DNA of 64,000 nt from Escherichia coli. GTDB lineage: Bacteria; Pseudomonadota; Gammaproteobacteria; Enterobacterales; Enterobacteriaceae. Below, one piece after another: positions 28,822-44,982 of the stretch. The notes under the pieces are model-generated. The model was not told the DNA's origin and searched no databases. It saw only the letters and a program-made list of their open reading frames with translations. The stretch is from NCBI RefSeq assembly GCF_002854065.1, contig NZ_CP024147.1. One strand, 5' to 3'. The position numbers and the translations under genes were made by a program. The first letter of the stretch is position 1. The number at the start of each line of letters is the position of its first letter.

Positions 28822-30105
28822 TTACAGACTTCTGGAAGGTTGCGCAGCTCTTACAACACGCGGTTGATCTTCCGCAGCGTCTTCCAGTGCACTTAAATCA
28901 CGGTCTTTCACTTCTGGCATTTTCAGCGCAGAGATTAAACCAATCACTGAATATGCCATGATCATAATGGCGATTGGATACCAGGATTCCGTCATGGTGC
29001 AGAAAATACCTGCCAGGATAGGACCAAAACCGGAAGCGATAAGACCACCAATTTCTTTTGAAATAGCCATCCGGGTAAAGCGGTTTTTACAACCGAACAT
29101 TTCTGCCATGGTAATGTTTTCCAGAGCAAATAATCCCAGCACCGCACAGTTATGAATCACAATCAGTGCAACCATAATCGTGCTCGGGGCATAGCTTTTA
29201 TCTACGATGATAGAAAGCATTGGCCATGCCAGCACAATCGCGGAGGTATTCATAATAATATACGGGATCCGGCGACCAATTTTATCGGATAACCAACCAA
29301 GGAACGGAATGGTCATAAAGCCGAGAATCGAACTAATCATCAATGCATCTGTTGGAATTGCTTTGTTAAACAATAACGTCTGCACTAAATAGCCTGCAAG
29401 GAAAGTCTGAATTAACCCGGAGTTACCCGCCTGACCAAAACGCAGCCCTGTTGCCAGCCAGAAGGATTTGCTCTGGAACATGCTACCAGCAGGTGCAGGT
29501 TTTGCTGTCGGTTGGTTGCTGTCATTAACCTTCTCAAAGACCGGGCTTTCTTTCAGATTCATACGTAACCAGATAGCAAAGACCATCACGACAACGCTCG
29601 CCAGGAACGGTATACGCCATCCCCACGCCAGCAGTTCCTCTTTACTGAGAATGAAGAACATAAAGGCCCAGATTGCCGTTGCGCTCAAGGTTCCGCAGTT
29701 AGTTCCCATAGCTACAAATGAGGAGATAATTCCGCGCTTACCTTTTGGCGCATATTCCACCAGCATCGTACCGGCACCGGAAATTTCCGCACCTGCACCC
29801 AACCCCTGAATAATACGCAGCGTCACCAGCAAGATGGGGGCAAAAACACCAATCTGTGCATAGGTCGGTAACACTCCAATTAAGGTGGTACAGATCCCCA
29901 TCATGGTGATGGTAATAAAGAGCACTTTTTTACGCCCTATTCTGTCGCCCATTTTGCCGAAAATAAATGCTCCGACAATACGCGCCACATAACCTGCACC
30001 GTAGGTTCCCATTGCCAGAATTAACGCCATTGCCGTTGATGATTCAGGAAAAAATATTTCATGAAACACTAACGCTGCGCCGAGCGAATATAACTGGAAA
30101 TCCAT
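28822..30105 (-). pseudogene. ydfJ: MFS transporter gene ydfJ, 3' portion (427 codons); first ~28 codons displaced to 44890-44982 by prophage insertion
   Basis: ORF begins MDFQLYSLGAALVF...; the fragment at 44982-44890 encodes MTIEKHERSTKDLVKAAVSGWLGTALEFMDF, which joins in frame across the att core. Confidence 0.85.
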
Positions 30106-30110
30106 AATTC
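30097..30110. repeat. attL core (host-phage junction inside ydfJ)
   Basis: 14 bp matching the 15-bp copy at 44890-44904 apart from a 1-nt indel. Confidence 0.75.
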
Positions 30111-30706
30111 ACAGGTGTTTTTTCCCATCCTGTGGTTTCCTTGGCGTTTTCTAGGTTTTTTCAGATAGTTGCATTTTTTTAAAAGCATCCTAAGTTCGAT
30201 CTCAGTGTCTATCTGGGGCCTATTTCTGTCCCATATATGCCCCAAAAAACTCCCCAACAGATAAGTAGTTTTTTCATGGATTTACGCGTAAAATCAATAA
30301 CGGCTGGAAATCATTCAATACTCGCACTATCGAAAAATTTACCAGCCAACCGCAGCACGTTCTTGCATAAGGTGTGTCTGCGGTTTTTCAACTATTCAGA
30401 TACATCACTCCCATCACATTCATTCCTCCACATCAAAGGCATATAGGCTATATCACCTTGATATTTTTCTTCTTCAGATAAAAACTGTTATCTATGTATA
30501 CTTTTAAACCCAATCCGTGTAGAGTCTCTGCATAAGATAGTTTGCAGTTGCCACTTCAGATTGCGCCATAAACCGCCTGATTTTTGCCGCCACCTGTTAG
30601 CATTCCTGTATACCTGAAACGACAATGTTTATCTACGAACTTTAAGAACACCCAAGATAAAATTGTCAACTATATCATATATAACACATTACTAATTCGA
30701 GGCTAT

Positions 30707-30820
30707 ATGAACAGCATACTGATAATCACTTCTCTCCTTATCATATTCAGCATTTTTAGTCATGCCCTAATAAAATTAGGGATTGGCATATCCAATAACC
30801 CAGACAAAACCGATGTATAA
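30707..30820 (+). CDS. candidate 37-aa hydrophobic small protein ([37 protein letters not shown])
   Basis: ATG at 30707 preceded by GAGG 4 nt upstream; single predicted TM helix; within a longer track ORF (30584..30820). Confidence 0.3.
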
Positions 30821-30888
30821 GTCAACATATCCTGAATCAGACATACAATATCGCAATGAAAATCAATAATATTTTAAGGAATATCTTC

Positions 30889-31122
30889 ATGAAATCAAAA
30901 GACACCCTAAAGTGGTTCCCTGCGCAGCTTCCTGAAGTAAGAATTATCCTAGGGGATGCTGTAGTGGAAGTAGCAAAACAGGGAAGACCTATCAATACCA
31001 GAACATTGCTTGATTACATTGAAGGAAACATAAAGAAAAAATCATGGCTGGATAACAAAGAATTATTACAAACAGCGATATCAGTTCTTAAAGACAACCA
31101 AAATTTAAATGGTAAAATGTAA
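30889..31122 (+). CDS. ydfK: small prophage protein (YdfK/YnaE family, cold-shock associated)
   Basis: ~77 aa from the ATG at 30889 (MKSKDTLKWFPAQLPEV...). Confidence 0.75.
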   Translation: MKSKDTLKWFPAQLPEVRIILGDAVVEVAKQGRPINTRTLLDYIEGNIKKKSWLDNKELLQTAISVLKDNQNLNGKM

Positions 31123-31438
31123 TATAATAAACTTACTTTTTTATCATTTTTCCACTTTAACAACATTTTGCTCCACTTTTCCACGAGCAAACAACTTGAA
31201 ATCTGGTTAAAATAACACGCAACACTATTCTTCTTCCTTGAGTCCGCCCGGAACTCGAAAAACAAACCGAGTTAAAGCCATTTTTCACAAAATCGATTTT
31301 GGGTCTCACCAAAGTTACGGGGTTGCATACGCATTCGTTTATTTTCGAACGTGTACATACAAATATGCACAAAAATAATCAAAATTATTTTCTGAGATGC
31401 ATTATGATATGAACACCAATTTCGTATAGAGTCTCACT

Positions 31439-44852: not shown

Positions 44853-44889
44853 TTTAATATTTATCAAATAGTTGACACGTATGACTCTT

Positions 44890-44904
44890 GAAATCCATAA
44901 ATTC
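44890..44904. repeat. attR core
   Basis: GAAATCCATAAATTC, direct repeat of 30097-30110. Confidence 0.75.
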
Positions 44905-44982
44905 AAGCGCAGTGCCCAGCCATCCCGATACTGCTGCTTTCACCAAATCCTTAGTGCTTCTTTCGTGTTTTTCTATTGTCAT
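44890..44982 (-). pseudogene. ydfJ: ydfJ 5' fragment (first ~28 codons) displaced by the prophage
   Basis: ATG at 44982; MTIEKHERSTKDLVKAAVSGWLGTALEFMDF then phage sequence. Confidence 0.8.

Follow-up and report, generated by a model that had tools for sequence, protein, structure and literature searches.

ynfT, a conserved and translated small gene for a predicted membrane peptide at a prophage end of Escherichia coli

Introduction

Is a short ORF in AT-rich prophage DNA a gene, and if so, does selection act on its peptide or on the RNA? This question is raised by a locus within a 64,000-nucleotide stretch of the Escherichia coli contig NZ_CP024147.1 (assembly GCF_002854065.1), here referred to as the window. 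The locus carries an ATG-initiated ORF for a hydrophobic peptide of 37 amino acids. An initial annotation made from the letters alone had likened the product to type I toxins or small membrane regulators, and had conceded that it could equally be a chance ORF. We therefore analyzed the identity of the ORF, its genomic surroundings, the constraint on its codons and the published expression data, and weighed the possible explanations for its function.

Results and discussion

Identity of the ORF

The ORF is a known gene, ynfT, which is named and annotated in RefSeq, is covered by curated family models and has a detected product. A megablast search of the region 30400-31200 against complete E. 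coli genomes gave matches in 2808 of 5426 genomes, and each of the matches listed annotates 'ynfT: YnaM/YnfT family protein' together with 'ydfK'. In a RefSeq genome that is 100% identical over the 801-nt region the ynfT CDS maps exactly onto 30707-30820. Thus, the initially claimed ATG at 30707, the GAGG 4 nt upstream of it and the length of 37 aa are exactly those of the RefSeq gene. The spacer between GAGG and ATG reads CTAT, and the stop codon TAA occupies 30818-30820. Position 30584, from which the feature had initially been drawn, marks a TTG further upstream, at which the longest open frame (78 codons) begins, and is not the start of ynfT. In one strain (NZ_CP145662.1, 2125531-2127108) an IS1 element is inserted inside the 801-nt ynfT-ydfK region. 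The coordinates of all features are given in Table 1.

Table 1. Features of the ynfT locus and of the prophage ends in the window
Feature	Position	Strand	Remarks
Left att core copy GAAATCCATAA	30097..30107	.	prophage/ydfJ junction; exact 11-bp repeat with 44890-44900
Terminator-like hairpin AACCGCAG ... CTGCGGTT + T run	30348..30389	+	inverted repeat; 22-nt loop, rejected by terminator scanner
Conserved upstream block, left cassette edge	30646..30706	+	contains TTGTCA 30663-30668
Shine-Dalgarno GAGG of ynfT	30699..30702	+	4 nt 5' of ATG; direct sequence reading
ynfT CDS	30707..30820	+	37 codons + TAA; YnaM/YnfT family small hydrophobic protein
ynfT-ydfK spacer, 68 nt	30821..30888	+	holds ydfK RBS AAGGA
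ydfK	30889..31122	+	RefSeq annotation; dN/dS 0.08
Right att core copy GAAATCCATAA	44890..44900	.	within ydfJ N-terminal stub

In K-12 MG1655 the equivalent ORF is ynfT (b4748, 1632890-1633003), located within the annotated 'cryptic prophage Qin' and flanked by a truncated ydfJ on one side and by ydfK, pinQ and tfaQ on the other. A paralogue in the Rac prophage, ynaM (b4744), lies upstream of ynaE and pinR and encodes a protein identical to YnfT. The product scored 63.9 bits against the family model NCBIfam NF041477 (cutoff 35) and 96.2 bits against Pfam PF23676 'YnaM' (cutoff 27), the latter covering residues 1-37 of 37. It also matched phrog_35882 with E = 3e-20.

The hydropathy of YnfT (Kyte-Doolittle, 19-residue window) peaks at 2.52 at residues 4-22, and the GRAVY value is 0.99. 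This is consistent with one transmembrane helix of about residues 3-28 followed by a short polar tail, as had been described initially.

The caution regarding a chance ORF was a fair one, since shuffled DNA often yields an ORF of this kind. In shuffles of the 500-nt segment an ATG-initiated ORF of at least 37 aa occurred in 51%, and one with a Shine-Dalgarno sequence as well in 3.5%. From the sequence alone ynfT is only mildly unusual, and it is the comparative evidence that is decisive.

The prophage end and the ynfT-ydfK cassette

The gene ydfJ is split in the window. Its C-terminal 427 codons are found at 28822-30105 (minus strand) and its N-terminal stub at 44875-44982 (minus strand). Since the att repeat separates the two parts, the start of ynfT is located 600 bp inside the left prophage junction, and the K-12 annotation places the Qin boundary at the position equivalent to 30097-30107. 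The initial annotation had located the ORF in an AT-rich stretch at a prophage end next to attL. The AT-rich stretch was confirmed (34.6% G+C from 30390 to 30889, with the att core 600 bp away), and the prophage end is real according to the 11-bp repeat and the split ydfJ. The term attL, however, is correct only insofar as this is the left end of the prophage in the numbering of the window: this end is the tail-fibre/b-region end and not the int side, and corresponds to the attR side by the lambda convention.

The window holds a prophage remnant of about 14.8 kb, as compared with 20.5 kb for Qin of K-12. It includes tail genes (minor tail protein L) which are not shown in the K-12 annotation at the equivalent place beyond the side-tail-fibre gene. 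The order of genes at the left end is ydfJ', ynfT, ydfK, pinQ and tfaQ.

Upstream of ynfT a terminator-like hairpin is present, which would represent the terminator ending the upstream unit. Homology to Rac and to active lambdoid phages (Turner, mEp460, Tritos, 2H10 and others) starts at approximately 30334-30346, just 5' of this hairpin. Comparison of three unrelated upstream contexts, namely those of E. coli, of the Salmonella phage 118970_sal3 and of the viral loci of the L027 type, revealed a closer boundary, as these align only from about 60-65 nt before the ATG. Because similarity begins only there in all contexts, ynfT and ydfK form a compact mobile cassette. The conserved block at its left edge may hold a promoter or a short leader.

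The 68-nt spacer between both genes contained no terminator-like site according to the terminator scan. In the Salmonella copy it measures 74 nt and thus differs by 6 nt. A ydfK gene follows ynfT at a distance of about 70 nt in 22 of 24 viral loci. In the remaining two (L027 and L028) ydfK is missing and an intact ynfT abuts a convergent tail-fibre assembly gene. Conversely, no YnfT-like ORF was found upstream of distant YdfK homologues of Enterobacter, Limnobaculum and E. coli, even when hidden ORFs were included. The pairing is therefore frequent and not obligatory. Taken together, the cassette is located between tail-fibre/invertase genes and the att site in lambdoid and some Salmonella prophages, and it moves between phage backgrounds.

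About 600 bp upstream of ynfT the Salmonella-type locus L027 also carries, in the region 886-2348, a gene for an S-type pyocin domain protein (PF06958, 106 bits) and a 90-aa ORF which may encode the corresponding immunity protein. The 90-aa ORF ends at 2351, and the ATG of ynfT is at 2944. These genes suggest that this prophage end collects cargo genes.

Coding constraint and distribution

The initial annotation had proposed that conservation of the ORF, and not just of the DNA, be sought in related prophages. Such conservation was found. The Salmonella phage 118970_sal3 carries an annotated 114-nt CDS of 37 codons, which has the GAGG, the spacer of 4 nt and the ATG in common with ynfT of the window and is followed by a ydfK homologue. 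The two ynfT copies share 81% nucleotide identity and differ at 22 sites, 14 of which are third codon positions. The dN/dS ratio in this comparison was 0.09 for ynfT and 0.08 for ydfK, with dS values of 1.08 and 0.91, respectively. Among 31 copies, which represent 11 different alleles, third positions accounted for 18 of the 32 variable sites. Between types, the dN/dS ratio of the ynfT frame was 0.085, compared with 0.34-4.4 for the five other frames. In the tail, residues 25-36 do not differ between the E. coli and Salmonella types, and the helix shows conservative substitutions. Judged from these alignments, purifying selection acts on the peptide itself and matches that on ydfK in strength.

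A scan of viral contigs (IMG/VR) yielded 24 ynfT loci, all of them with an intact 37-codon ORF. GAGG, the 4-nt spacer and ATG were present in every viral-contig copy with upstream sequence, including the Salmonella types of about 80% DNA identity. Likewise, an annotated intact ynfT CDS was present in 60 of 60 E. coli records sampled evenly from 2804. Frameshifts and premature stop codons, which had been named as evidence against a gene, were thus found in none of the 24 viral loci and 60 sampled records.

The gene is very widespread, being found in 2803 of 5426 complete genomes and therefore in about half of all complete E. coli genomes. A search of a phage collection with the DNA of the ynfT region gave 13 phage records. 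The family nevertheless is very narrow. A HMMER search of 1.84 billion representative proteins returned only the cluster of YnfT itself (one 50%-identity cluster), and sequence searches of the PDB with YnfT and YdfK gave nothing significant. The YnaM/YnfT family is hence real and confined to prophages of E. coli and Salmonella. Due to its small size there are no distant homologues from which a function could be borrowed.

Published evidence for translation

Most of the checks proposed initially, namely start-site profiling and evidence for translation, have largely been published already. VanOrsdel et al. 2018 (PMC6001520) list the YnfT sequence twice, as ynaM and as 'ynfQ', the latter with the coordinates of the present ynfT. 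Both loci are among 36 chromosomally SPA-tagged small ORFs with immunoblot bands in LB. Furthermore, both ynaM and ynfT were positive in tetracycline-arrested ribosome profiling of K-12. In the study of Weaver et al. (10.1101/511675) YnaM-SPA exceeded most of the newly found small proteins in abundance, but YnaM was without ribosome density at its start codon.

Weaver et al. used only reads with a unique match and tolerated two mismatches. Relative to the ATG, positions -51 to +23 do not differ between the Qin and Rac copies of K-12 (L002, 2391-2504 and L003, 2294-2407). The missing initiation peak of YnaM is thus probably a multi-mapping artefact, since reads from identical copies would be lost under unique-only mapping. 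This also calls for general caution with paralogous prophage genes.

With these data the possibility of a chance ORF in AT-rich DNA can be assessed. The high share of shuffles with a comparable ORF and the missing YnaM peak would agree with it. However, the peak is explained by the mapping of identical K-12 copies, and conservation, dN/dS, the frame-specific constraint, the curated family models and the detection by immunoblot are all in conflict with a chance origin. The alternative raised by the initial annotation is refuted by the conservation of the ORF, its dN/dS and its frame-specific constraint, and we assign it practically no probability.

In a 2024 survey of the y-ome ynfT is listed as uncharacterized. 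The uncharacterized Qin genes in this survey include both ynfT and ynfQ, so that ynfQ now denotes a different Qin gene than the ynfQ of VanOrsdel et al. (1632890-1633003).

Regulation and possible co-transcription with ydfK

Transcripts of ydfK and ynaE are linked to cold shock. In an RNA-seq experiment on overexpression of yaiX (PMC13058169) ynfT was up 5.7-fold and ydfK 5.3-fold, and both rose alongside cspI, cspG, cspB, ymcE, deaD and rhlE. This supports co-regulation of ynfT and ydfK. That both are also co-transcribed would follow from their spacing, their synteny and this one RNA-seq table.

For ydfK and ynaE, older studies describe short and prematurely terminated 5'-leader RNAs which are bound by Hfq, and riboswitch-like elements were proposed for them. 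These leader RNAs are probably the ynfT and ynaM message. Given these reports of Hfq-bound leaders, an additional role of the ynfT region at the RNA level is conceivable.

A consensus promoter scan of either strand gave 7 promoter-like sites where 5.3 +/- 2.0 were expected, which corresponds to chance level, and the terminator scan was at chance level as well. At the canonical spacing from the conserved TTGTCA at 30663-30668 no -10 hexamer could be assigned. None of the four genes ynfT, ynaM, ydfK and ynaE appears in Term-seq supplements, possibly due to loss of multi-mapping reads. Two published SELEX candidates were considered and rejected as uninformative. The 'constitutive promoter' of ydfK (TTCCCA-16-GATAAT) sits inside ydfJ at 29703-29730, and the hexamers reported for ynaE are absent from the window.

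Could ynfT then be a regulatory upstream ORF in a long ydfK leader, acting on mRNA stability, Rho access or exposure of the RBS, with a dispensable peptide? ynfT precedes ydfK in the same orientation, a spacer of 68 nt without a terminator separates the two genes, and the pair is kept in 22 of 24 viral loci. Moreover, both mRNAs change in step in the RNA-seq data, and short 5'-leader transcripts of ydfK and ynaE are described in the literature. On the other hand, purifying selection on the peptide is as strong as on ydfK (dN/dS 0.09) and its tail is invariant, while distant ydfK homologues lack a ynfT-like upstream ORF. Tagged protein is stable and abundant in the case of YnaM-SPA. A predicted pairing of ynfT codons 10-11 with the RBS of ydfK is broken without compensation in the phage 2H10 and Salmonella copies. 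Folding and comparison across copies revealed no conserved RNA switch that would link translation of ynfT to the RBS of ydfK or to a terminator. Since the peptide is conserved, and since an intact ynfT is retained in L027 and L028 where ydfK is absent, a role purely as a leader ORF is quite unlikely. The comparative data indicate instead that selection acts on the peptide itself and not on an RNA element or on the regulation of ydfK.

The product of ydfK

An 88-aa reading of ydfK from the ATG at 30856 (30856-31122; L006, 3297-3563) is annotated in phage Turner. A 2-nt insertion upstream of the ydfK start in the Salmonella copy breaks this 88-aa frame, and the 77-aa start at 30889 is therefore the real one.

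YdfK matched the NCBIfam model YcgZ with E = 0.011, which is below the cutoff. A profile-profile alignment (hhalign) with the YcgZ/YmgA/AriR group extended over 36 columns with a probability of 27%. The AlphaFold (AF2) model of YdfK had a pLDDT of 75.5, and its top PDB match was YmgB/AriR (2OXL) with TM values of 0.61/0.74, a probability of 1.00 and E = 0.11. Three weak but convergent signals, one of them from a structural model, are thus suggestive of YdfK being a distant relative of the small 'connector' regulators YcgZ, YmgA and AriR.

Distant genes of the YdfK/YnaE family were also seen in other arrangements. In Limnobaculum and some E. coli (L035, 2218-2379; L037/L038, 2170-2370) they are divergent to a gene of the YnfU family (zinc-knuckle), YnfU being another small protein of Qin. 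Others adjoin a GH94 glucan synthase gene.

The alternative of a type I toxin with an antisense RNA

The initial annotation had compared the product to type I toxins. Under this explanation YnfT would be a membrane-damaging toxin whose translation is blocked by an antisense RNA in cis or in trans. The protein is indeed short, hydrophobic, single-helix and prophage-borne, and the toxin model PepG1 showed a faint similarity to it (E = 0.055). This was, however, the sole toxin model touched. It reached 13.1 bits against a cutoff of 70, the exhaustive protein search gave only the cluster of YnfT itself, and PADLOC had no match for ynfT.

The RNA side of such a system was analyzed as well. An antisense RNA might in principle start from a promoter-like site at 30898-30871 (minus strand), and a leader RNA from the ynfT region is Hfq-bound according to the older reports. 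Nevertheless, promoter-like sites are at chance level on both strands, Rfam has no RNA family at ynfT, and the K-12 annotation shows no ncRNA at the ynfT or the ynaM locus. At 30351-30488 (minus strand) Rfam gave a weak match to CssrB, an sRNA from the Shigella chromosome, whose 22.8 bits (E = 0.058) fall far short of the gathering score of 76. The mRNA folded no better than shuffled sequences (z = -1.0 for windows of 396 nt and 221 nt). Its RBS is not predicted to be sequestered, as the only pairing of the GAGG is in a weak helix which the centroid structure lacks. A hairpin within the ORF (30766-30782) is not kept in the copies of phage 2H10 and Salmonella. The synonymous sites of ynfT are saturated (dS 1.08-1.37, as in ydfK), which argues against an overlapping functional RNA that constrains the gene. 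Hence, the proposed search for an antisense RNA gave no signal in this computational evidence from Rfam, the promoter scan, dS and the annotation.

Finally, according to the literature tagged YnfT and YnaM expressed from their native loci are easily detected in LB cultures, in contrast to what is expected of a repressed toxin. The resemblance to type I toxins did not hold up in view of 13 against 70 bits for PepG1, the missing RNA family, the unstructured mRNA and the detectable protein. We regard a toxin as very unlikely, and the comparative data steer hypotheses away from it.

Proposed role of YnfT

Identity, coding constraint and synteny of ynfT are established by the analysis above, as are, from the literature, the detection of the protein and the co-variation of its mRNA with ydfK and the cold-shock regulon. 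We conclude that ynfT is a bona fide translated gene and the first of its cassette, and that it probably encodes an inner-membrane peptide which would modulate a larger membrane protein and be made in the cold together with YdfK. According to its hydropathy, the peptide would insert into the inner membrane as a single-pass protein. The invariant tail and the retention of the ORF without ydfK in L027 and L028 suggest that it acts at the peptide level. Other small membrane proteins of E. coli bind and modulate larger membrane proteins. By analogy, the most likely mode of action would be that the helix and the conserved tail of YnfT bind and modulate a partner of this kind, with YnfT presumably produced together with YdfK in cold cells.

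The beneficiary of such a peptide could also be the prophage. In this case YnfT would serve superinfection exclusion or modulate a receptor or DNA injection and not the cold physiology of the host. ynfT occupies a moron position, as it lies between att and the tail-fibre genes, where lambdoid phages carry genes for lysogenic conversion and exclusion (such as lom, bor and cor). It is further found in the active temperate phages mEp460, Tritos, 2H10 and Turner and moves between unrelated phage backbones. PADLOC, however, gave no match, YnfT is without a lipobox or signal peptide, and no experiment connects it with resistance to phages. Point 'mutations' in ydfK and pinQ, including ambiguous bases, were reported for phage-resistant mutants at 1633223-1633629 of K-12 (PMC12844343). 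As they fall into the segment duplicated between Rac and Qin, they more likely stem from mis-mapped paralogues or gene conversion than from selection, and on this reading the ydfK changes lend no weight to a role in resistance. A function on behalf of the phage is considered unlikely. It is a sub-case of the membrane peptide proposed above, with the same class of protein and a different beneficiary.

An extension of the proposed role includes YdfK. YnfT and an AriR/YcgZ-like YdfK might form a cold-triggered, phage-borne module which retunes a host envelope sensor, such as a kinase of the Rcs or PhoQ type, or a transporter. This idea is based on the synteny of the cassette, the co-variation with cold shock, the invariant tail of YnfT and the AriR/YmgB-fold signals of YdfK, and in this complete form it is rather improbable. 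If true, YnfT and YdfK would benefit the lysogen at low temperature.

Comparison with known systems

The closest relatives are YnfT (b4748) and YnaM (b4744) of K-12. Amino acid sequence, start codon, RBS and length are all the same as in the window, and so are the neighbours (ydfK or ynaE, pin and tfa) and the prophage end. Compared with ynfT of Qin the DNA of the window differs at a single synonymous site of the ORF, and nothing of substance is different.

Type I toxins such as Hok, Ldr, TisB, Ibs and PepG1 are, like YnfT, short proteins with one hydrophobic helix and are sometimes prophage-borne. In contrast to them, YnfT shows no homology, no signal of an antitoxin RNA and no structured mRNA, and its synonymous sites are free to vary. 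It is also detectable without derepression and has a neutral to acidic tail instead of a basic one.

YnfR and YmcE are small proteins associated with cold shock that belong to the same prophage and regulon and are likewise encoded beside cold-shock genes. Cold shock induces YnfR-SPA, and ymcE is up in the same RNA-seq table as ynfT, where the evidence for ynfT is at the transcript level. The sequences of YnfR and YmcE are unrelated to YnfT.

In size, in the single transmembrane helix and in the short conserved tail outside the membrane YnfT resembles MgrB, AcrZ, MgtS and SafA. Members of this class show condition-linked expression beside a stress gene, as is the case for ynfT. There is no sequence relationship to any of the four and the resemblance is by class only. 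By this analogy, a small membrane regulator, the second of the two possibilities named initially, would be the best functional guess for YnfT.
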